Part shown: positions 17,129 through 63,577 of the stretch, piece after piece
Numbering within the stretch: the first letter of the stretch is position 1
Layout: every line of letters starts with the position of its first letter
From: Squalus acanthias
Lineage: Eukaryota
NCBI GenBank assembly: GCA_030390025.1
Contig: CM059432.1
Coordinates: 36,272,001 to 36,336,000, forward strand
Direction of reading: 5' to 3'
Length of the DNA stretch: 64,000 nt
Notes under the pieces: model-generated
Told to the model about the DNA's origin: nothing
The model's input: only the letters and a program-made list of their open reading frames with translations
Database searches by the model: none
Position numbers and translations under genes: made by a program

Positions 17129-17299
17129 ATACAAAAGCAAAATACTGTGGATGCTGGAAATCTGAAATAAAAAATGAAAATGCTGGAAATACTCAGCAGG
17201 TCAGGCAGCATCTGTGGAGAGAGAAACAGAGTTAACGTTTCACGTTTCAGGTCGATGACGGTCGTCAGACCGTTTCTGACCGAAGGTCATCGACCTGAA
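17129..17299 (-). mobile_element. Penelope-like terminal fragment with a short inverted copy and hammerhead-like motif
   Basis: 14-bp TSD ACCAGAAAATTCTT (17115-17128, 17300-17313); same sequence as the 3' end of the PLE at 61467; inverted pair 17244-17259 / 17286-17301. Confidence 0.85.
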
Positions 17300-23065: not shown

Positions 23066-23848
23066 TGTTAATGGAGTTAGGTTGCAGATCAGCCGTGATC
23101 TCATTCAATGGCAGAACAGGCTCAAGGGGCTTCAATTTTCTAGCAGGGAATGCTGAGGCCAATTGCAATGCTGCTACTGTCTTTCCAGCACAGATAAGTT
23201 CACTCCACACAGGCCTGGCTACTTCTGTATGGCTCAGTTCCACACTAACTATCGCACTGAGCTATCAACCTTAATTGAATGGAGGAAAAGAAAGCAGAAA
23301 CATTAAGGCTGTTGATCTGGTTATGAAGTCTGTTTGATGAGTGGGTGCAGAGCACAAATTGAGATGCTGCTTTTCAACATTTGTTTTACCTGAGCTGCTG
23401 ACTAGAGTACCTCATCAGTGATGTTTGAGGATCAAAGCAGTTCATGTGTGTTTACATTAGTGAGATGTTAGTAGATAGATAACAGCCTGTGATGCTGAGG
23501 GTAAGCTGTGGACCAGAAAATTATACTTTCAAAAATAATGTTTTTTTGTACAGTTATGCACTTTAGATAACAAGTTCCAAAAGAATGAATGTAGGGAATA
23601 TTCTATCTCCCCTCTTCCTCCCCCCCCCCCCCCCCAAGTTTTATTCATTCCTTCCTGAAGGTGCTGACTCATGGACTCATGCTGGGGTATGGTTCAGGTC
23701 AACTTTGTTCAGTCCGTAGCATTCTTGCCTCATGAGTCAGAAGGTTGAATCCTCACTCCAGACTTTGAGTACAGAATCTAAATTAATCCTTGGGCATGAT
23801 ACTGAGGAAGTGCTCCATTGTTAGCGGTGGCTTCCTTTAAATAAGATG

Positions 23849-24184
23849 TCACGCTACAGAACGTGACTTGACATCGTTGTCTGTCTTTCCAGTTTAAAAA
23901 AAAACAAACACAAAAAACAAACCCAAATGGAGAGGATATGCAGACAGCAGGTTTTGACACGTTGGACCCCCTGGGACACATCTCATTGTCTTGGCTGTGC
24001 TCTTGGTGTGTCTTTGATGTAAGGAAAGATTGTATCTCTGCATTTTCTTTGTGTTTATATTCTGTGAATTTTTGTAGATTCACTCATAGTAACTTTACCT
24101 GAAGAAGGGGTGATCGATAGCTCCGAAAGCTTGTAATTTTAAATAAATCTGTTGGACTATAACCTGGTGTTGTGCGACTTCTCA
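23849..24184 (+). mobile_element. Non-autonomous Penelope-like 3' terminal unit (single arm)
   Basis: 13-bp TSD TTTAAATAAGATG (23836-23848, 24185-24197); homologous to the palindrome arms at 25474-25885 and 52168-52289. Confidence 0.85.
24095..24136 (+). ncRNA. Minimal hammerhead-ribozyme-like motif
   Basis: UUAC-CUGAAGA-A-GGGGU(GAUCGAUA)GCUCC-GAAA-GC-UU-GUAA. Confidence 0.65.
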
Positions 24185-25107
24185 TTTAAATAAGATGGTA
24201 AGCAGAGTTCCCACCTGCCTATTGAGGTTGCAGTTGAAGATCCCATGGTGCTAGTCAATCCCCTGGTGTCCTGGCCAAAATACTTAAATTAACTATCTGA
24301 CCACTCATCCTGTTGGTGGTCTTGCTGTGCACAAAATGCTTACCCCATTTGTTTACATAGAAGCAGTTGGCACAAAAAGTCAACTGTATATCGAATCATA
24401 GAATGGTTACAGCACAGAAGCAGGCCATTCGGCCCGTCGAGCCCGTGCTGGCTCTCTGCAAGAGCACTTCAGCTAGTCCCACTCCCCCACGCTTTCCCTG
24501 TAGCCCTGCAAATTTTTTTCCTTCAGGTACTTATCCAATTCCCTTTTGAAAGCCCCGATTGAATCTGCCTCCACCACCCTTTCAGGCAGTGCATTCCAGA
24601 TCCTAACCACTCGCTGCGTAAAAAAAGTTTTCTTCATGTCGCCTTTGGTTCTTCTGCCAATCACCTTAAATCTGTGTCCTCTGGTTTTTGACCCTTCCGC
24701 CAATGGGAACAGTTTCTCTCTCTCTCCTCTCTCTCTCATGATTTTGAACACCTTTTATCAAATCTCCTCTCAACCTTCTCTGCTTTAAGGAGAACAACCC
24801 CAGCTTCTCCAGTCTATTCACGTAACTGAAGTCCCTCGTCCCTGGAACCATTCTTGTAAATCTTTTCTGCACCCTCTCTAAAGCCTTCACATCCTTCCTA
24901 AAGTGCGGTGCCCAGAATTGAACACAATACTCCAGTTTTGTCCAGTGTTTTATACAGGTTCATCATAACTTCCTTGCTTTTGAACTCTATGCCTCTATTT
25001 ATGAAGTCGATAGTGGTCATGATGCGGAGATGCCGGTGTTGGACTGGGGTGGACAAAATTGAGAGGTCGCACAACACCAGGTTATAGTCCAACAGTTTTA
25101 TTTGAAA

Positions 25108-25149
25108 TCACAAGCTTTCGGAGCTATCGATTGCTCCTTCCTCAGGTGA
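25108..25149 (-). ncRNA. Minimal hammerhead-ribozyme-like motif (left arm)
   Basis: Reverse complement of 25797-25838. Confidence 0.7.
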
Positions 25150-25796
25150 AGTAAATTAGATACAGAATCGCCAAAGCATATATAGATAGAAAACAAAGCA
25201 TGTGTACTTTACAATTGCAGACCAATAAATTAAATCATCCTGACTATCTGCCGAGGTGTGATAAAGTTAATTAAGTCAGCCAGGAAGGTACCACATCAAA
25301 GACATAGCAAGATACAACTGAGACAATGAGGTGTAGTCGCAGGGGTTCGAACGTGTCAAAAGCTGCCGTCTGTATGTAAAACGAAAAGCTTTAAAAAAAA
25401 TTTTACTTTTTTACTGGGAAAATTTTTACTTTTTTACTGGGAATCACATCTGTGAACAAGCTATCGACGACTCGAGTCGTCGTTAGCTTGTTCACAGATG
25501 TGATTCCCAGTAAAAAAGTAAAAATTTTCCCAGTAAAAAAGTAAATTTTTTTTAAAGCTTTTCGTTTTACATACAGACGGCAGCTTTTGACACGTTCGAA
25601 CCCCTGCGACTACACCTCATTGTCTCAGTTGTATCTTGCTATGTCTTTGATGTGGTACCTTCCTGGCTGACTTAATTAACTTTATCACACCTCGGCAGAT
25701 AGTCAGGATGATTTAATTTATTGGTCTGCAATTGTAAAGTACACATGCTTTGTTTTCTATCTATATATGCTTTGGCGATTCTGTATCTAATTTACT

Positions 25797-25838
25797 TCAC
25801 CTGAGGAAGGAGCAATCGATAGCTCCGAAAGCTTGTGA
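25797..25838 (+). ncRNA. Minimal hammerhead-ribozyme-like motif (right arm)
   Basis: UCAC-CUGAGGA-A-GGAGC(AAUCGAUA)GCUCC-GAAA-GC-UU-GUGA. Confidence 0.7.
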
Positions 25839-27309
25839 TTTCAAATAAAACTGTTGGACTATAACCTGGTGTTGTGCGACCTCTCTATTTATGAAGCCCA
25901 GGATCCCGTAAGCTTTTTTTAACAGCTTTCTCAACCTGCCCTGCCACCTTCAACGATTTGTGTACTTTAAGATGTTTCTGAGACTTAATGAGATGCAATT
26001 TTTCCAGGTGGTGAAATTAAACTATTCTACTAAAGAGGCATCATTGCCAAGCCCAATCTGTTCTTGACTGATACCCACATGTACTTTCCAATAGAGATTA
26101 TAGAGTATACTAAATACCCAATAAGGAGCTAGGGGTGTTTGAGTGTCCTGACTATTGGCAGAACCGTAAAGGTTGTTTTTCCTTTTAATAGGCTGTTTTC
26201 TTTTGGCAGTGCAAATGGATTAGAACCTTTCCCCACCTGTTCTTTGCTGAGTGACAGGTATATTTCTTTAATATCTTCTATTCTTTCTCTTCCCCCTCCC
26301 ATGTTCCCTTCCACCTTCACTTTTACTCCCCTAACCAGAGATTGTCTAGGTGAGCTGTTGCTGCTACCGATTCACATGGACTGTGGAATAGGAGGAATGA
26401 TTTATTTGCTTTTATTTGTTGTTTTTCTCTTATCTGAGAAATGGAAAAACATAAAAAAAATTAAGGAACAGCAAATGGCCATTCCGTATACTTAGCCTGG
26501 CATCCAATTGCATTTGTTTTGTTATTTCTGCTACCTTACATGGTAAATTATTCCAAACATTTATCATCCTTTAACTGAACAATTTTTTCTACCCTGTGTT
26601 TTAAATGACTGTTTATTAATTTAAATCCATGTCGTCTGGCCCTGATGGCCTGACTTACTTTGAAATAATATTCTGAGTTCATGTTCATGTCACCTATATC
26701 ATTCAATACTTTATAATATATTGATAAGGTTCTTCCCTTCCCCTCCCCAACCCATGTTCTAGACTGTAGCACTTAGTTTATCTAACTTTCTCTAATCTAT
26801 CCTTGTAGCTCATCTTCTTTGCACTTACTGCTCTTCTCTGCACCTTTAATGTATCTATATCCCTTTTGAAGTGTAGTTATCAAAACTGTGCACAGTACTT
26901 TGTGTGGATATCCGGTAAAGGTGGGTTCAGTGTCAGATGTAGCGCTTACTGTTGTGGCTCATGTGAAGAACAGACTTTGTACACTAGTGCTCCACTATTC
27001 TGGCTATATATCCTAAAATTTTTTGTTTTTTCCTCCATTGCTTCTTCACATAACGACTTTGAAAATAGTGAATCCACTGTGCATTTCAGATCCCCCTATT
27101 TGCTATTTGTTATATCTATCTTACTCAGTTTCTCCCCCATCATTTTTTTTACCCAGTATGCAGTAGTACATCTTGTCCTCTTGCTCATAAGTTGGTATTT
27201 TCTAATATTATGGGAGCTACTGTTAAATTATCCATCACAGAAGAACATTTCTGCTAATATAAAGATTAGCACTATCGTTTTCTGCATGACTGTTCTCTGG
27301 TGATCTTGT

Positions 27310-44340: not shown

Positions 44341-45254
44341 ATTGTCCTCTGACCAAGTATGTGAATTGCTTCCTTCCAGGCGTTTCTCACTACCATTCTT
44401 ACATGGGCATCTTGTGTCAAATCCAAAACTGGACAGGATACAGATGAGGCAGATGGGGGGGGGGGGATTGTGACTTGAGTTGTAATGTTTTCTTTCCTGT
44501 TGATTGATTACCTCAGTAGCTAAAGTTTCCACATCATAAGACAAAGCAATAAGTGGGGTTGAAAATGGCTTTTATCAGAAGTTTAATGTCCTGTTTAAGT
44601 TTTAGAAATTTCTGAATAATCTACTTAAAGATGGACTTTATGGCCCAAACAGGCAACCGCCTAATGGATGTGTACAGGAGTGTGAGACATGTAGATTGGC
44701 AGTATTCTCGCCACCACTGACCCTGCTTTTCCTACCTTCTTGAAATTGAAGGAAGTAGAAAAATCATACCTTTTTTGTTTTAAGGTAAGCTTTAATTGTG
44801 TGAAACCATTTGCTTTTAGGTGTAGTGGTGTAGCAGTCTAGCTGAGAAACATCCTTTTCAACACCTGTGTGGACAAATAAAGCTGGGTTGTGGAACACAT
44901 CTGTGCTCATGTGGCAGTTAGCTGCCCCATGTCTAATTCTGAGAAATTTATACTGCTATACAGTAATATAGAAGTGGTTCAGGACACTTAAACACACTGA
45001 TATTTAAGAGGGCGCAACGTAAACCGTATTCCCAACATGATTTTCTCCAGTTAATCTCCCAAAATGAATCCTCCCCCCTCCCTGGGTAGGTCTTGACTCT
45101 TGGGGTATGATTTCATGGGGGCTGGCAACCCCTGGGATTTTGCTCAAGTTGCCATCCCTGTGCCAGGAGGTCACTTGATCTGGGCCAAGTCCATTCCTGT
45201 TCTACTCTTCGTGGGGTACTGTAACATAATCAGCAGTAGGAATGCTGGCTGATT

Positions 45255-46330
45255 GTTTCCCCCCCCCCCCCCTTCTCCACTTCCTTCCCCCCCCCTTCTC
45301 CACTTCCTTCCCCCCCCCCTCTCCACTTCCTTCCCCCCCCCCCTTCTCCACTTCCTTCCCCCCCCCCCTTCTCCACTTCCTTCCCCCCCCCCTTCTCCAC
45401 TTCCTTCCCCCCCCCCTTCCACCCTTCCCCCCCCCTTCTCCACTTCCTTCCCCCCCCCTCTCCACTTCCTTCCCCCCCTCCCACTTCCTTCCCCCCCCCT
45501 TCTCCACTTCCTTCCCCCCCCCTTCTCCACTTCCTTCCCCCCCCCTTCTCCACTTCCTTCCCCCCCCTTCTCCACTTCCTTCCCCCCCCTTCTCCACTTC
45601 CTTCCCCCCCCCCCACTTCCTTCCCCCCCCTTCTCCACTTCCTTCCCCCCCTTCTCCACTTCCTTCCCCCCCTTCTCCACTTCCCCCCCCCCCTCCACTT
45701 CCCCCCCCCTTCTCCACTTCCTTCCCCCCCTTCTCGACTTCCTTCCCCCCCCTTCTCCACTTCCTTCCCCCCCTTCTCCACTTCCTTCCCCCCTTCTCCA
45801 CTTCCCTTCCCCCCCCTTCTCCACTTCCTTCCCCCCCCTTCTCCACTTCCTTCCCCCCCCTTCTCCACTTCCTTCCCCCCCCCTTCTCCACTTCCTTCCC
45901 CCCCCCTTCTCCACTTCCTTCCCCCCCCCTTCTCCACTTCCTTCCCCCCCCCTTCTCCACTTCCTTCCCCCCCCTTCTCCACTTCCTCCCCCCCCTTCTC
46001 CACTTCCTTCCCCCCCCCTTCTCCACTTCCTTCCCCCCCCCCTTCTCCACTTCCTTCCCCCCCCCCTTCTCCACTTCCTTCCCCCCCCCCTTCTCCACTT
46101 CCTTCCCCCCCCCCTTCTCCACTTCCTTCCCCCCCCCCTTCTCCACTTCCTTCCCCCCCCCCTTCTCCACTTCCTTCCCCCCCCCCTTCTCCACTTCCTT
46201 CCCCCCCCCCTTCTCCACTTCCTTCCCCCCCCCCCTTCTCCACTTCCTTCCCCCCCCCCCTTCTCCACTTCCTTCCCCCCCCCTTCTCCACTTCCTTCCC
46301 CCCCCCTCTCCACTTCCTTCCCCCCCCGCC
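45255..46330. repeat. Polypyrimidine minisatellite, unit ~TTCTCCACTTCCTT(C)6-11
   Basis: About 1.07 kb of tandem ~20-26-nt units, almost all C/T on +. Confidence 0.97.
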
Positions 46331-48689
46331 CTGCCTTTCTCCTTTACTTGCCCCCCCTCGCCTTTCTCCTTTACTTGCCCCTTCGTTGGGGAAGGGGGGG
46401 GGCTCTGAGGTCCATTTTACAGCTCAAGTGCGGCTGAGTTCAGCTAACTTGATGGAAGATTGAACCTGGTGATTACTGCAATGAAGTATCCTTCCTTGTA
46501 TGCTTGGAAGTAGTGCTACACGTGCGTAGGGTTTTAAAAAAAAAAATTGACGTTGAAGTTGGCTGCAGTGATGACGATGGTGGCAGCCGGTGTAGGATGT
46601 CACATTCTAAGTATGTGGTGGTTCTGAATTTCACTGCATTGAAGATCGTATTAACTGTTGACTTTAACATGACTGCCCAGAGGTAGGTAAAGAAAAAACT
46701 TGCAGGTGATCTGAGGTGTATGTTTGTGACATGACTTGTGTGTCTAGTTCAAATGGTTACCCTGTGTTACCTCTCTGGCAGCAAAATAGATGAGGTGTTG
46801 GATGCTTTAAAAAAAAAAACAACTTTACATACAGCAGGAGCAGCTCAAACTGTGTAATGAAGGCCTGTCTGAGTCAGGATGGTGAGATACTGGTTTTAGT
46901 TTACCATTGAGTGATATTCTATATTTAGCTGAAAGGACAAATGTCAGTGCTCAAGCTGTGCAGCTTCCACTAGAGCATGAAATGGGGTCTGTGTGACTGT
47001 CTATGTTCATTTTCACTGCTGTATGAAACCCCTCTAGTATGGCCAGGTTGACAGCTACCGTTTTGCCATGGAGCAGGAGGCTGTGCCCCAGCTGCTCCAC
47101 AAGTACAAAGTGATTGGTTTCGGCATCAGATGCTGGTGCAGGGCACAGATAGGTGTTTTGTTTTTCCATTTCTCGGCCATCCCAGTTTTTATTTGTGAAT
47201 GTATGGGGGTGGGGTGGCGGGAGGGAGAAGGAGGAAGCATTGGTTGCTATGATTCAGATTGTAGCAAGTGTTCCAGATGATATTAAGGGAGGCTAGGAAC
47301 CATTGTTTCCCTGCTGCCTATCCCCTGAAACAAATGGGAACACGAGCATGTCTTGTGTATAGAATATTAAATAGTAAGAGATATTTTGTAATGCTGTAGT
47401 TCATTTGAGTAGTTTCTGAAAGTTGAGGCCCCCAGATTGTATTAAAGCTTCCTTCACCTTCATTTAATGTGGAACTTGGTGATTACCCTGCTGTCTTTTA
47501 AAACTCATCCCAATTGACATTATGCAAAGGGTATAATTACCCCCCTTGGTGTAACTGTAAAGATCACTCGACTGTTGTGTTGCCGCATCTAAAGGGCAGG
47601 AATGCCATGCCACCCAGTTTTGGTTTGAGGTACACTTTTCTGCCATCTCCTATGCCCAGATGTCCGCATGGCACCATTTCCCCCTCTGAGTCAGAAGGTT
47701 GTGGTGTCAATCCCCACTCCAAGGCTTGAGCGTGTTTGAAGAAGAGCAGAGTTTCTGCCACCATTACGCCTTGATCAATGCCACCAAAAAATCAGATTAA
47801 CTCCTCCTTGGCCTCTCCAGTGGAACTCCAACGTCTTCCCCCACTGCTAAAGCTGCCTTCGAGAAGCTCCGTTTCCTCTTTTCAGCCGCACATTATTCCT
47901 CCCCACCCCAACAACTGTCCAAGTCCATCCAATGCTTGAATATTGTTCCCATGTCTAGGAAGGCTCTTCTAGTGCCAGTGACCCCCTGCTGTAAAGTGTG
48001 TGTGTGTGATCACAGGATTGAGTTTGGTTCTGACATCCCCTCCACCTTTGATCTGTTTAGTATCTGGATCATGTGTGAAGACTGGTTATTTGGGGTGAAA
48101 TAGGCTGCCAGGGATCTTGGAGCTGTACCCAGCAAGAGTCGGCACTCTTCATGGAGAGAAGAGAGAAATTGGAAATAGAGGGATGTCTGTAAACTCTGTT
48201 CATTTCTCAGCACCAATGAAATCAGCTGGCAATGGAAACTTAATAGTTGCCAATGAGCTATATAATAACTAGTGTTAAAATGTGCCTCTCCACAGGGTTT
48301 AGCTTTTGTTTGTGTCATGCTTAGTCAGATTTATTGTAATTACATACCACACTCTCCTACAAGAAGCCTGAAATCATTGAGACAGTACTCCTCTTGTATG
48401 TCAGCACTACATTTAACCCCTCGTGGCCTTGTTGCTGATGATGCTGTGATGACGGTTGTGTCTAGTGTGAAGTCTGCTTCAGTATGGGTTGAAGCAGATG
48501 TGAAACTGATGGCTGTGCTGATGGGGGTTGCAGGAGTGACTGGTGTTGAATAATACCTGAGTGCAAGCCTCAGGGTGTTATGCACTTGAGATCAGCTATG
48601 ATCTCAAACCAGAAGGCATTCACTCAGGCTCAGTCAGTATTTGTTGTCACTTCGTAAACGGGAAGAGGAGAGGAAAATAAAAGCTTTGT

Positions 48690-52025: not shown

Positions 52026-52094
52026 GACTGCTGACACTGTCAAGTATGAGAAGTCGCACAACACCAGGTTATAGTCCAACAGATTTATTTGATT

Positions 52095-52133
52095 TTACAA
52101 GCTTTCGGAGCAGTTCGCTCCTTCGTCAGGTAA
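52095..52133 (-). ncRNA. Minimal hammerhead-ribozyme-like motif (left arm)
   Basis: Reverse complement of 52202-52240. Confidence 0.7.
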
Positions 52134-52201
52134 GTTTAGCAGTGAGAGAATCTCCCAGAATTCACAATTGTGAATTCTGGGAGATTCTCTCACTGCTAAA
52201 C

Positions 52202-52240
52202 TTACCTGACGAAGGAGCGAACTGCTCCGAAAGCTTGTAA
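52202..52240 (+). ncRNA. Minimal hammerhead-ribozyme-like motif (right arm)
   Basis: UUAC-CUGACGA-A-GGAGC(GAACU)GCUCC-GAAA-GC-UU-GUAA. Confidence 0.7.
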
Positions 52241-52681
52241 AATCAAATAAATCTGTTGGACTATAACCTGGTGTTGTGCGACTTCTCATTTTTGTCCACC
52301 CCAGTCCAACGCCGGCATCTCCACATCATGACTGTCAAGTATTGCACACGCAATCCTTGAGGAGCTACTATGGAGCTGCTGGCTTCCATGGAACTATACC
52401 ACAGCTTGAATCAGCATCGTAAAGCTATGAAGTTTAAAAGATGGGACAGGAACACTGACAACAAACTTAACATGATCTTGGGATTTCAGAAGCCTAAACA
52501 GATTCAGAGAGATCCCTGTTTTCTTTCAATTTATGTTGCAACTGAGCAAGTGGTTGTTGGGATCTGCTGGTTTCTTGGTAAGGTTTTTAGCAATTTCATT
52601 CTTTTTATTCATGAGAGCTATGATCAGATGACTGGCATTGTATCTGACTTCAGTTGCTTTACATTACCAATCTTGGCTAGC

Positions 52682-52960
52682 GGTTGTAGTAGCCTAGTGA
52701 TTATGCTACGAGCAATCTAGATGTCATCTGTTCAAATTAAATTGAATAAATCTGGTAGCACCAGAAACCAGCACAAAGGCTGCTGGATTGTTGTAAACAT
52801 CCAACTGGTTCATTAATGTCCTTTAAAGGAAGGGAGCCTGCCACTTCTGGCTCCAGTGTGACTCCAGTCCCACACTGTGGGTTGGGTCTTAAAAGGCCCT
52901 CCTGGCAACTAGGGGTGGGCAATAAATATTGCCTTGTCAATGTTGCCCAGCTCCCAAGAC
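52682..52960 (+). mobile_element. Decayed bipartite SINE of the same family
   Basis: TAGCCTAGTG A-box-like, CTGGTTCATTAATGTCCTT and GGGTGGGCAATAAAT tail. Confidence 0.7.
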
Positions 52961-55900
52961 CAAATAATTGGAGGAATCGCAGCTAAGTGGCAGAGTATTT
53001 TCCAGTAGAGATCCTATTTACTGCCCATGTACCTTGCACAGAATGCTAGTCACCTGTATAATAGTGGCTTTCATATGCTGAAGAGGAAGCCAGAAGATAA
53101 AGTGAAGGAGTAATTAAGATACACATTTATTCAGCAATATTATGATTGCAGCAAGGATGTCTCTGTAATCTGCCTTCATGCAGGGAGATGGCTGTGGTTG
53201 CTGTCACATAAACTGCTAGTAGTAGATGGGAACAGTAAATGGCCAGTGGTGGGAGTTTTTTTATAACTAAAAAAAACGCCCTGTATTTTCCTAATGGTTT
53301 AGTGAGTAAATGAACTGCGTGGTGTGATGATCCCCAAGTAAGCAAACCAAGAATTTTTTTTTTGTCTTTCTGCTGAAATAATTGGCTTTTTATATTGAAA
53401 ATCAACTGGAATTTGTGCTAGAATGGAATTTCAGAAATGGACTGGACTGTGAAAAAATAATCGCTTGGGCAACTAAGACCTGGCAATAAATGCAAACGCT
53501 GTCCACATCCTGAGAACAAATTAAAAAAAAACTTGAGCTTTTTGGCAGGCATTTCAACCGTTTCCTACTCTTGGTCACAATCCACTGACTGCTGCTGGAA
53601 GCGTGTTTGGCTATGGTGCTCCACTTAACATAGTCAAATGGGCTACAGATGCACACCGTCTGCACACAAGCTCACTCAAAGAATGGGCACTTGAAGGAGG
53701 CATTGGAGAGTGGCAGATATACATGGGATTGTATTCCAACATGAGTTAGTAACTTTAAGAGAAGAAGTGGGAGGGAGAAAGGAACAATATTCTAATAACC
53801 TCTACCATTCAGGTCTGTTCAAAGCTGCATATCTTGTATTTTGCTAAAATCATTAGCATTGAATGAACTGTCAAGGGGAGAAGGTGGTGAAGGAGTGGAG
53901 AGAACCATGTTTTTTTTTACCTGAAGCCTAATTTTTTTTTAGATGTTATACAGTATAAGTTCAGTATTTATTGATACCTGCGCTAACAAAATTAATGACT
54001 TAAAGTTTCCATGGTTTCTGGCACCTGCACCCACTCTGAAGGAAACTGATGACTTGATGAGGAATCTTATATAAAAAAAAACCCAGGCTTAGATTTAGAA
54101 TAGGCTGAGAAGAGAAGCACAGGAAGACTGAAATTTCAAGGATGGTAATTGAGAAGGATAAATAATATAACAATGTGACAAATACATGAAGGCTAAAAAG
54201 GCAAAGGGTTGAGTTTTTGTAGTTATTGTCTATTTCATACTGTCTCTTGCTCTCTCAACCTCTTTCAGCTGGAGTCAAAGTAACCAAGGCACCAAAACAA
54301 TGGCCCCTTTTATCCTTGAGGTGCAGGTATCTGGCACTATTGGTTTGCTTGTGCTTCAGATGCAGTACTTTTATCTGGAGATGTTGGGCAGCATACTGTT
54401 GAATCCACATCCAGCAACATCTTTCTGCATTTGTAGTAAAGCATCAGATAAAAGCTTCCACTTTGACATGGAACTGGAAATTGAAGATGTCAGATTTTAT
54501 TCTTTGGTTCTAGGACAGGTTGGTGACGGGTTGTTTTGAACAATCTCCATTCTTTGAGTGAAACATCAGATGCCTAATATTTTCTTAACCTTTCTCAAAG
54601 AACATGCTGAGCATGACCATAGCAACTTAAGGATCTTGACTCCAATACTGTTGTACTAACTCAACCCATAAAGTACTGAGTAGCAGTTTCAGCATAGGGT
54701 AGAATGTTGACATTGGCTTTTGGTCAGTGTATCCTCTTGTCTGACTCTCTTCTAGCTCCACATTGAGACCTGCAGAATGATGAAAAAAACAGTTGGGAAT
54801 AGGAGATCTGTCTTCCCTGATGCCCTGTGGGTCAATGCACCTGTGGTGCTAAGCCGTACAGACTAGTAAGATCTGGGATTTCTTTCCTGCTCTATGTTGT
54901 TGGCTCATCTCAGTCCGGTGTCAGTCGAGGCACTGCAATTAGTCTAGTGTTCCCGAGTTGAGGAAGGAAGAACCAGGGGTTTCCATTTATGTTTGTTATC
55001 GAGTGACCCTTGCTAAAAATGTAAGCATGAGGCTAGAACAAGTTCTGGTGCTATGAGCTTCCCCTTCTCCCACCCACTCAACACATATGCTGGCGATACT
55101 TGATCTTTTGGGCACACAAATGAAGGTTGGATGAGCTATTGGCTGGCTCGTGAAACTAACAGCAATGAGTTAGTGCCTTCAGAAGAGGAGGGGAGGAAGT
55201 TGTGGGGAAGGAGTTGTCCTCATGGAATCCTGCCTGCTTTGCCGGATACAGGTTCATTCATAATAATTGACAGTGTCTCATATCCCAATGCAAATGCCTA
55301 GTGTTCTTCTCCTCTCCCCCTGTCCCCATCACTGAAAAAAATCAAATGTTTGGCAAGATAAAGGTGATATGTTGTCAATCCATTGTTCAGCCACTGGTGT
55401 AGATTAACTCTGGAAGCAAACAGACACACAGGCAATTACTTAATTACATTAATAGTGCATATTCTGGGGAGCTAACCCAAAATAAAGAGTACTCTTAGTT
55501 AATCTAGCACTCTAGTAAATTATTTGTAGGAGTAAAGATTTTTTCTTCTCCCTTTCACCTTTTAATTCTGCAAAGTCTAAGACATGAATTCTTCTAAATT
55601 ATCTCTTGCTCCTGGACAGGGTACAAGAAAAACTGGCAATCATTTTCCCACCTCTGTGGCAATCAAGTGCATGAAGTAATTCCTGTCACTATTTGAAGTG
55701 GATTATAGATCTTTGGCAATCAGTTACTGGGTTATTCGCTACCTTGTTTAATCAGCCACTCATTCATTCACTTCTTCTTCATATTTTGAAAGCTTTGTGG
55801 TGGGAATATTGCCAAGCCAAGTAAAGGGTGGGTGGGTTGTGTATGTGTTTACATCCTCAAATATCCAGTTTTTTGAATGTCTGATTCCAGGTGCTGGACC

Positions 55901-57639
55901 TTTATGCTTCTTCCTCTAGTGCAGTAACTCTGTGTCCTTGAGCAGCTTTTTTTTTTCTTGGTCACATTCCCAGAATTGCTCCCTCATGGTTGTGACCAAG
56001 ATGTTTGCTCAAAACTGAAGCTAAAACTGCTGGTTTTCAGCTTGCTGACTTTTCATTATTTTTTAAATGACTATGTGTTATTTTAACTTCACACCCACCT
56101 TTTGTAATGTCCCTTGTCCTTGCACTTCCTAGAAAAGATGACAATCAGATGATTTTGTACGACTCTCTTGATGATGTGGTCAAGTTGGCTTGTAGGCAAC
56201 AGGCAAGAGCGGGCAGGAGATGGTTCTCTTTACTCCATCGTGCTCCAAGATAGGTGCTTTGCTTCCACTTGATGTGATCCATAGCAATACACACAAGATT
56301 AGATTCTTGAAGAAGGGAAGTGAGACTGTTCTGTTGTGAAGCACAGTGCTTACGGTGGTCCTTTGGAATGCTGTGTCTGCAGTACTTCACACAGGGAGCT
56401 TTACATGGAAGCACAATACAGCGACTTCACTGTATTGTTTGGTAGTTGCTGTTTTTTATGTACCAGTTTTGCTTAAGGCGGCAGCTGCTGCTACTTGCAG
56501 TATGCCTGACCCAAACTCCAAGCCTTCATCGTCCAGGCACTGGGTTTTCATGGGTCCTGTGAGGGCTGCTGTCTGAGATGGTGCAAAACACAGTCTTCAT
56601 CACATGGACTCTCTAGTTGGCCCAATGGGGACTGGAGTCAGACTGGAAAAGTAGCACTTGTAGGTTGCATTTCCTCACTTGGACACTCTTCTAGTGACAC
56701 TGTAATGTTCCACGTAAAAGTCCATTTAATAACCCCAGTAACTAGCCCTGCAAATTGGGACAGGAGTAAGTTGAAAAAATTGACTTTATTTTAAAACCAC
56801 AAATTTAATGACTGGTTTGGTTTAAATGTTAGAAATGTTCACACTGTTCGGTTGAGTCCTAGTCTTGTTTCCACAGGCTAGTTGATCAATATTAATTTGA
56901 ATTTTGTTGTGATCTGGGGCCCCCTCTTCAACTACGTAAGATTTTATTCAACACTTAACATCTGTGTACACTGGAAGATACTGAGGGCTGTAATCCTCAA
57001 GGACAGGAAATGTTGCAGCTCACTGAAGATTAATCCTTGGACACTGGTTACTGCAAAAAAAAAATTAAAACATTTCTTGGCTGGTTTGCAGCTATCTTCT
57101 GTTTTTCTGCAGATTGCTCTTTCCTCCTGAACATTGGCTCTGCCCCTTTAATATTTAACAAAACACTTGTAGGAGTGCCACTATATTTTGACAAGCTCAA
57201 TGAGTTACCGGTCTCTGGATTAGCCAGATGTCTTGGGAGTCGGCCATCACCGATTTTCTTCGCTGCTCCTGGAGGTGCTGACTGTTGCTGGGGTGAGTTT
57301 CAATAGGTAGCACTGTACGCCAATCTTCGAGTACAAGAATCATTAGATAGTGATCAGGAATAGGAATCGTAACTTCCTTTTTGTTCTCTCCTCTCTGCAC
57401 CTTCATTCCGCCCCCCCCCCCCCCCCCGCCCCCAACACCCAGTACAACCATGGGGCACCTCAGTTATAGCACCCTAAATGCTACATTGTCTGAGATCAGC
57501 TAACACAGCACAGACCGGTAATTTGTTTCATTGGGCTAGACATCACTGGTGGTCGACCTCCTCTAGTGTCCCTGTGAGCTAGCTGCTAATGGTGCATGAA
57601 TAATCTGGGGTAGGGGTGGGACCAACTCAAGATTGTTTC

Positions 57640-61466: not shown

Positions 61467-63203
61467 ATAACAGAAAACGCTGGAAAAACTCAGCAGGCGA
61501 GGCAGCATCCGTGGAGAGAGAAACAGAGTTAACGTTTCAGGTTGAAGACCTTTTGTCAGAACTGGAAATAGCAGGAAATGAAATAGATTTAAGGCAAGGA
61601 TAAAGCTGGGAAAAGGGGGAGGGGATGAAAGAACAAAAGGAGAGATTAAGAGATATTAAGAGATGATCAAGGTGTTAATGTGACAGGTTGAGGCTAAAAG
61701 AAGTGTGAAATGCACTAGCAGAATGAAGGACAGCTGCCAGTTTCTAGGAGGGAAAAAAAAGGGGGGGGGGCAAACAAAAGGGTGGATGAAAAAAATTAAA
61801 TATAAATGTGATTGGGGCTGAGGTTATGATCTAAAATTGTTGAACTCGATATTGAGTCCAGAGGGCTCTAGGGTGCCTAAACGAAAGATGAGGTGCTGTT
61901 CCAATGTAGAGGAGACCACATCGTGAGCAGTGAATACAGTATACTAAATTGCAGGAAGTACAAGTAAATCGCTGTTTCACCTGGAAGGGGTGTTTTGGGG
62001 CCCTGGACAGTGGGAAGAGGGGAGGTATAAGGGCATGTGTTGCATCTCCTGCGCTTGCACGGGAAGGTGCCGGGCGAAGGGGAAGGGGTGCTGGGGGGTG
62101 GTAGAGGAGTGGACTAGGGTGTCGCGGAGGGAGCGGTCCCTGCGGAATGCTGAAAGGGGAGGTGAGGGGAAGATGCGTTTGGTGGTGGGATCACGCTGGA
62201 GGTGGCGGAGGATGATCCGTTGAATGTGGAGGCTGGTGGGGTGAAAGGTGAGGACAAGGGGAACTCTATCGTGGTTCCGGGAGGGAGGGCAGAAGTGCGG
62301 GAGATAGAACGGACACGGTCGAGGGCCGTGTCGACCACGGTAGAGGGGAATCCTCAGTTGAGGAAAAAGGAAGACATGTCGGAAGCACTGGTATGGAAGG
62401 TGGCATCATCAGAGCAGATGCGGCGGAGACGGAGAAACTGGGAGAATGGAATAGAGTCCTTACAGGAGGCGGGGTGGGAGGAAGTGTAGTCCAGGTAGTT
62501 GTGGGAGTCAGTAGGCTTGTAGTGACTGTTAGTCAATAACCTATCCCCAGAGATGGAGACGGAAAAGTTGAGGAAGGGAAGAGTCGGAGATGGACCATGT
62601 GAAGGTGAGGGAAGGGTGGAAATTGGAAGCATAGTGAATTAAATGTTCTAGTTCAGGGCGAGAGCAGGAGATGGCACCGATACAGTCATCAATGTACCGG
62701 AAAAAGAGGTGAGGGAGGGGACCCGAGTAGGACTGGAACAAAGAGTGTTCCACATATCCCACGAAAAGGCAGGCATAGCTAGGACCCATGCGGGTACCCA
62801 TAGCAACACCTTTAATTTGGAGGAAATGGATGGAGTCAAAGGAGAAGTTGTTCAATGTGAGAACAAGTTCAGCCAGGCGGAGGAGGGTGGTGGTGGATGG
62901 GGACTGGTTGGGCCTCTGTTCAAGGAAGAAGCGGAGCGCCCTCAGGCCATCCTGGTGGGGAATGGAGGTGTAGAGGGATTGTACGTCCATAGTGAAAAGG
63001 AGGAGGTTGGGGCCAGGAAACTGGAAACTGTTAAAATGGCGGAGGGCGTCGGAAGAGTCGCGGATGTAGGTGGGAAGAGACTGGACAAGGGGAGAAAAAA
63101 TAGAGTTGAGATAGGAAGAGATAAGTTCCGTGGGGCAAGAACAGGCTGAAACGATGGGTCTACCGGGGCAGTCCTGTTTGTGGATCTTGGGAAGGAGGTA
63201 GAA
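61467..63203 (-). mobile_element. 5'-truncated Penelope-like element (RT plus GIY-YIG)
   Basis: 11-bp TSD GCTAATTCTGT (61456-61466, 63204-63214); terminal unit at 61467-61565 with a mutated hammerhead-like core CUGACAA..GAAACGUU. Confidence 0.93.
61824..63203 (-). pseudogene. Penelope reverse transcriptase and GIY-YIG endonuclease, disrupted
   Basis: FYLLPKIHK, PGRPIVS, MDVQSLYTSIP, GVAMGTRMGPSYA and RYIDD; NLVYCIHCSRCGLLYIG (~61900-61950) is joined by a deletion to EQHLIFRLGTLEPSGLNIEF. Confidence 0.9.
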
Positions 63204-63577
63204 GCTAATTCTGTGTTTCCTGTACGAGGACACCTAAATCTCTCAACACCAATATTTAATAGTTTCTCGCCATTTAAAAATATTCTTCCTACCAAAATGA
63301 ATAACCTCACATTTCCCCACGTTATACTCCATCAGCCACCTTATTGCCCACTCACTTAACCTGTTTATATCCCTTTTCAAAATCGTGCTATTATAGTATA
63401 CTGTCTTTCCATATTAGTCTTCCCAAAGTGTATCACTTCACACTTCTCTGCATTGAACTCCATCTGCTATGCTTCTGCCAATTTCACAATCCTGTCTGTC
63501 ATCCTGAAGTCTACAACTTTCCTCATCACTATCTACTATGCTACCAAGTTTCGTATCATTTTTTAAAAATTCAGTCA

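Follow-up and report, generated by a model that had tools for sequence, protein, structure and literature searches.

A palindromic insertion in the genome of Squalus acanthias as a very probable stub of a Penelope-like element with two head-to-head pLTR ends

Penelope-like elements (PLEs) were described to insert with an inverted pLTR, an optional 31-bp tail, a TSD of 8-10 bp and palindromes at the inverted junction (PMC3846280, in the part of the text available), and the same insertion scheme is found in the accessible parts of PMC8557442 and PMC8969392. In the Pen1-6 elements of Adineta vaga, the copies show a head-to-head inverted pLTR, an optional one-sided tail, 5' truncation, a short variable TSD and a palindrome at the inverted junction (PMC3846280; scheme in PMC8557442). 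The direct pLTR is a variable feature of individual PLE copies (PMC8557442; PMC8969392). For the anole protein PAc, encoded by Poseidon of Anolis carolinensis, it was shown in vitro that it cuts and extends both DNA strands with a preference for ATT and that it starts reverse transcription at two internal RNA sites which bound the tail; the later steps of insertion are left open in the available text (PMC11167929). Minimal hammerheads in PLE pLTRs were reported to have little or no self-cleavage activity as monomeric motifs, and close hammerhead pairs on opposite strands were also noted (PMC4209133, available sections). The non-LTR retrozymes are non-coding, carry a type-I hammerhead, are related to PLE pLTRs and form head-to-tail tandem arrays (bioRxiv 10.64898/2026.07.22.740005).

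The palindrome analyzed here lies in a stretch of 64,000 nucleotides of Squalus acanthias (GCA_030390025.1, contig CM059432.1, positions 36,272,001 to 36,336,000 of the forward strand), which is referred to as the window and to which all positions refer; it is eukaryotic and contains many LINE fragments. As proposed in the first-pass annotation, the palindrome at 52046-52289 is exact, with arms (52046-52167 and 52168-52289) complementary at 122 of 122 positions and no spacer between them, and direct comparison of the arms places its centre at TTCACAA/TTGTGAA. The proposed one-sided tail of 41 nt (52290-52330) and the 12-bp TSD (52036-52047 and 52331-52342), which is the longest direct repeat in the flanks, were likewise borne out. 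A flank match of 12 bp occurs by chance at a rate of 0.0001 in random flank pairs. The DNA fold of the palindrome reaches z = -33.8, with 0 of 100 shuffles equally stable, and the tail region has no significant fold (z -0.5 and -0.2). Since the TSD shares 2 nt with the palindrome, the inserted DNA comprises 52048-52330. The features of this copy and of its two relatives in the window are collected in the table.

Coordinates of the palindrome at 52 kb and of its relatives in the window
Feature	Position	Strand	Details
Left TSD copy, 12 bp	52036..52047		last 2 nt common to the palindrome
Inverted pLTR arm without tail	52046..52167	- (element sense)	122/122 complementary to the right arm
Minimal type-I hammerhead motif, left arm	52095..52133	-	descriptor match
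CAG/GTAAGT donor-like string	52127..52135	+	reverse complement of hammerhead stem I and CUG core
pLTR arm with tail, truncated 5' at the centre of the palindrome	52168..52289	+	matches the 24-kb copy up to the tip, 28/38 columns
Minimal type-I hammerhead motif, right arm	52202..52240	+	descriptor match; fits the consensus in the supplement of PMC4209133
AATAAA directly 3' of the hammerhead	52246..52251	+	same place in 3/3 copies; possible poly(A) signal
One-sided PLE tail, 41 nt, ends in ATG	52290..52330	+	39/41 identical to the 25-kb tail
Right TSD copy, 12 bp	52331..52342		first 2 nt also fit the continuation of the element
Palindromic relative in opposite orientation	24993..25896		TSD 24993-25006 / 25883-25896 (14 bp); tail 25007-25060
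Arms of the 25-kb palindrome	25061-25473 / 25474-25885		411/413 columns identical; 1 mismatch, 1 gap
Single-arm relative without tail	23836..24197	+	insert 23849-24184; 13-bp TSD 23836-23848 / 24185-24197

The palindrome is very probably the insertion stub of an endonuclease-bearing (EN+) PLE, composed of two head-to-head pLTR ends and a one-sided tail, and the best explanation of the insertion at 52 kb is a young, dead and severely 5'-truncated copy in a 12-bp staggered cut. The inverted, 5'-truncated head-to-head pLTR is present in two of the three copies in the window. The optional one-sided tail has 41 nt at 52 kb and about 52 nt at 25 kb and is absent at 24 kb; the short variable TSD has 12, 14 and 13 bp, respectively, at AT-rich targets (67-85% AT). 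The minimal type-I hammerhead motif is found in 5 of 5 arms and at no other site in the window. As this layout has already been described for PLEs, the palindrome at 52 kb is a further copy, real but ordinary. In comparison with Pen1-6 of A. vaga, as described in the accessible text, only the pLTR end is present here, with arms of 120 nt and with neither an ORF nor a direct pLTR; furthermore, the tails of 41 and about 52 nt compare with 30-40 nt published for EN+ PLEs and the TSDs of 12-14 bp with 8-10 bp in Pen1-6. The direct (partial tandem) pLTR is absent in all three stubs in the window, which does not exclude PLE membership because this feature varies among PLE copies.

The layout and spacing are also similar to Poseidon of A. 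carolinensis, in which a hammerhead is followed by the tail and AT-rich targets are used (PMC11167929, available text). Stem II starts 23 and 26 nt before the cut here, compared with 26 nt in PAc. From the start of stem II to the end of the tail, 117 and 131 nt are found here, compared with 111-118 nt for the main start of reverse transcription by PAc, a figure that can refer to either of the two start sites in the text of PMC11167929. According to the same text the ORF of PAc starts at stem II, whereas here the corresponding frame is interrupted by a stop at the predicted cut, and no ATG occurs other than that at the tail end. On the minus strand at 25007-25020, the longer tail of the 25-kb copy continues through the ATG into four more open codons, which are possibly the start of the parent ORF.

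No ORF with RT-GIY-YIG is linked to the repeat in any of the three copies in the window. The 34-codon frame of the tail, compared with 1.84 billion representative proteins, gave one match and no PLE protein; this match, a repeat protein of 4818 aa, was rejected as it consists of 24 stretches of at most 4.5 bits each. Sequence-pattern scans of viral and metagenome contigs gave 0 matches, and five prokaryote and four viral pattern matches were attributed to chance (they extend over at most 19-25 nt, and three reach 40 nt at 80%). Its end sequence being different, the PLE fragment at 61.8-63.2 kb was rejected as parent. It belongs to a 5'-truncated, broken fragment of a second PLE family (61511-63233, minus strand) with an RT domain (RVT_1, E 4.8e-06, below the cut-off), a CxxxxC stretch and a GIY-YIG-like start (VYCI...LYIG) that is interrupted by a deletion. 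This fragment ends in a decayed hammerhead-like motif, and its end sequence recurs at 17214-17241. Elsewhere in the window, a fragment on the plus strand at 2547-2822 matches DDE_Tnp_4 (E 3.5e-11) and is probably a PIF/Harbinger-type transposon relic, and a degenerate, purine/pyrimidine-skewed tandem repeat of 22-23 nt occupies about 1.2 kb at 45170-46460.

A generic minimal-hammerhead descriptor built from the general consensus (stem I, CUGANGA, stem II, GAAA, UH) finds exactly five sites in the 64 kb, which are the five arms, and none in 100 Markov controls. The motif at 52202-52240 is composed of stem I TTAC/GTAA, CTGACGA, an unpaired A, stem II GGAGC/GCTCC, GAAA, GC and TT, with the predicted cut after 52236. 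It shares with the minimal hammerheads of PLE pLTRs the 4-bp stem I, CUGANGAH, the G-C closing pair, GAAA, the 2-nt palindromic insert, UH and the AU-rich 3' flank; the alignment in the available part of that source is, unlike the present DNA, without cartilaginous fish (PMC4209133). The stem cells are paired at 36 of 36 places, with one compensatory and two one-sided changes; the pair counts come from four distinct rows and are not significant against shuffles (91/500), and the fold z-scores are modest (-2.5, -1.4 and -0.2). The Rfam search gave 0 matches at gathering score and 14 weak matches without any hammerhead family; these are mostly miRNA models and were rejected because they merely reflect the hairpin. 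In a read-through RNA of the palindrome, the hammerhead pairs are predicted at a probability near 0, whereas an isolated arm gives 0.996 (stem II) and 0.57 (stem I). By this prediction, the long stem of a palindromic transcript would sequester the motif, in contrast to the hammerheads presented in the available text of PMC4209133.

The first-pass annotation had further read a strong splice donor, CAG/GTAAGT, in the left arm in the presumed sense of a host gene. The string is real, and it is mirrored on the minus strand at 52200-52208; its use as a donor found no support. It changes together with stem I among the copies (GTAAGT, GTGAAG, GTAAAG). No host exon was found in a Pfam search of the 300 longest of 341 non-repeat open frames, a search that short exons would escape, and the host sense is thus undefined; these 300 frames gave only transposon domains and three weak matches below the cut-off. 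If transcribed, the palindrome would fold into an RNA duplex of 122 bp in which hammerhead and donor-like string are both buried; the string is therefore unlikely to have a regulatory role.

The ends were compared base by base in three copies, all within the 64-kb window. Among the copies, 77, 79 and 80 of 89 shared columns are identical; those at 24 and 25 kb differ by internal gaps, and all three are non-coding upstream of the hammerhead and without any ORF. It had been proposed that the tail-less arms stop at one and the same point. The tail-less ends of the three copies indeed fall within 8 nt, but no single base fits all of them: with the end of the shared CTC taken as zero, the junction can lie at 0 to +2 in the 52-kb copy, at -3 to 0 in the 25-kb copy, where the boundary sequence is GACCTCTC, and at +1 to +4 in the 24-kb copy. 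The tailed end varies too, the tail of the 25-kb copy (about 52 nt) being 11 nt longer than that of the 52-kb copy. The single-arm copy ending at 24184 does stop at the shared boundary; it is, however, a complete insertion (23849-24184) with its own 13-bp TSD. The noted difference of tip and inner sequence among the copies was confirmed, and the tip is the point of 5' truncation within a longer element: the arm at 52 kb can be aligned with the 24-kb copy as far as the tip, beyond which the latter continues upstream, and one contig of a public run (X9) matches from 52168 and is preceded by five more letters. In the 25-kb palindrome the sole substitution between the arms (25464 / 25483) lies 10 nt from the centre, just outside a perfect core of 18 bp. 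At the 5' end of the single-arm copy, a 6-bp inverted repeat around 8 nt (23848-23867) forms a small hairpin at the place where the other copies have the palindrome centre.

The right arm, the tail and the right flank (52168-56500) were compared with the contigs of four public runs (X1, X5, X6, X9). The family of the repeat is very abundant in these contigs; the summed depth in X1 is 2.9 million over the arm and 5.8 in the flank, and as this depth is not a copy number, only "very abundant" is concluded. The right flank is partly present in 17 of 20 listed public runs. Loose ends behind 52329/52330 are numerous (67 in X1, 60 and 50 in X5, 8 in X9) and agree at 0.37-0.45, showing that the flanks beyond the tail end are diverse; these rows would also include copies with longer tails. 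In X6, no such loose ends are found among the matches listed. Neither a family-wide loose end at the inner boundary (24 rows; 1044 others) nor a strand-change joint (15 rows; 49 others) is present among the matches listed. Tail, TSD and right flank are joined in one X1 contig, which matches from 52307 onwards; with 24 nt of tail, it falls short of the 31 nt set by the bridging rule. In X6, which is from another species, a 611-nt contig aligns from 52335 and is preceded by 35 unaligned letters, a hint of an empty site in that species. The X5 contigs have no coverage at 52372. Four X1 contigs leave the tail at 52302 into a common other sequence (agreement 0.58), and one X9 contig goes from 52291, the inner boundary, back to the hammerhead-like stretch at 52230, possibly a head-to-tail arrangement in another species.

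From the common boundary and the varying fold-back point, the first-pass annotation had concluded on a reproducible mechanism with a fixed processing or nicking site. Reproducibility is supported, as the three copies end within 8 nt, the tip varies and many contigs of the family diverge from the reference at the tail end, continuing into different flanks; the mechanism is not new, the fixed boundary being the known tail boundary of PLEs. Nicking or processing at this site corresponds to an older published reading (PMC8557442, available text); the tail ends were since mapped in vitro to start sites of reverse transcription (PMC11167929, available text). Such a start site agrees with the TSD-bounded single-arm 24-kb copy, which ends at this boundary without fold-back. 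About even odds are given to a mechanism in which each of the nicked strands of the target serves as a primer, at one of the tail boundaries apiece, with subsequent head-to-head joining of the cDNAs. In this order of events, the PLE protein would nick AT-rich DNA on both strands, a step taken from the accessible text of PMC11167929; one target 3' end would prime on the element RNA at the outer site and yield the arm with the tail, and the other would do so at the inner site and yield the arm without it, in both cases by 2-3 nt of pairing. Both cDNAs would stop early, their 3' ends would be joined and the gaps filled in. Priming at two start sites and early stopping would fix the outer ends and leave the tip where synthesis stopped.

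Priming at both ends is favoured by the overlap of TSD and element at 4 of 4 testable junctions (2, 2, 3 and 3 nt; chance per junction 0.17, 0.16, 0.06 and 0.06), a number of junctions that is small and an overlap that end-joining leaves as well. It is also favoured by the single-arm 24-kb copy, which ends at the inner boundary with neither a partner arm nor a fold-back. In L1 twin priming, reportedly proposed by Ostertag and Kazazian in 2001, both target ends are said to prime on the RNA, giving an inversion. The scheme proposed here is alike in this respect; L1 inversions join different parts of the RNA, whereas here both arms derive from one part of it, copied from start sites that lie about 40-50 nt from each other. 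More specifically, it is tentatively proposed, at somewhat less than an even chance, that a dimeric PLE protein twin-primes both strands at the two sites bounding the tail through 2-3 nt of microhomology, and that this would replace self-priming as the origin of PLE palindromes. The term twin priming is not used in the PLE papers among the matches listed, where palindromes are ascribed only to self-priming.

Self-priming would likewise start from a PLE: a single cDNA primed at the tail end folds back and primes itself, and the copy stops at the inner boundary or is nicked there by the endonuclease of the element. This reading, which is close to that of the first-pass annotation, is a possible one that we hold with clearly less than even confidence. 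Junction palindromes were so read in the available text of PMC3846280, and the tail was ascribed to EN-mediated resolution in that of PMC8557442. Arms that are identical or nearly so and lack a spacer agree with it, and the lone substitution in the 25-kb arms speaks against twin priming, as it lies 10 nt from the tip, where self-priming on an imperfect hairpin is expected to leave one. In two of three copies the inner boundary is CTC/ATT, and PAc prefers ATT, which also agrees with this reading; yet the same protein cleaves and extends both strands in vitro and starts at the two sites that bound the tail (PMC11167929, available text), and the single-arm 24-kb copy has the same boundary and a TSD without any fold-back. 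Whichever way the ends were made, the donor could have been a non-autonomous PLE derivative, a retrozyme-like mini-element with the same mechanism at its ends, which is considered doubtful. Upstream of the hammerhead none of the three copies has coding sequence, and those at 24 and 25 kb differ by internal gaps; such derivatives were described from vertebrates, one cartilaginous fish among them (bioRxiv 10.64898/2026.07.22.740005), and the X9 contig running from 52291 back to 52230 points in the same direction. However, the arm of 120 nt is too short to identify the donor, any pLTR is non-coding anyway, and no head-to-tail tandem hammerhead units are found in the 64-kb window, where a head-to-head pair with tail and TSD is present instead of the tandem array of retrozymes.

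Two explanations outside PLE insertion carry little weight. Perfect palindromes are a known class of artefact, and a fold-back during assembly or library preparation might come to mind here, the more so as the X1 contig joining the tail to the right flank includes no more than 24 nt of the tail and X1 is possibly the source sample itself; this is very improbable, given that the flanks are not mirrored, the tail is one-sided and the TSD exact, and that the layout recurs in a second copy, which is oriented the other way and differs in both tip and TSD. A MITE or a foldback DNA transposon with long terminal inverted repeats would account for inverted repeats, a TSD, the lack of an ORF and a high copy number. 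It can hardly be reconciled with an asymmetric insert bearing a tail on one side only, with TSD lengths of 12, 13 and 14 bp, with hammerhead-bearing arms whose points of truncation at the centre differ or with the TSD-bounded single-arm copy, which contradicts it, and it is accordingly regarded as extremely improbable.

By itself, the palindrome at 52 kb is one of very many copies of a known insertion type. In a family of this abundance, junction statistics could decide the origin of PLE palindromes. The value of the copy at 52 kb lies in clean data, with the tip and the two junctions legible at single-base resolution.
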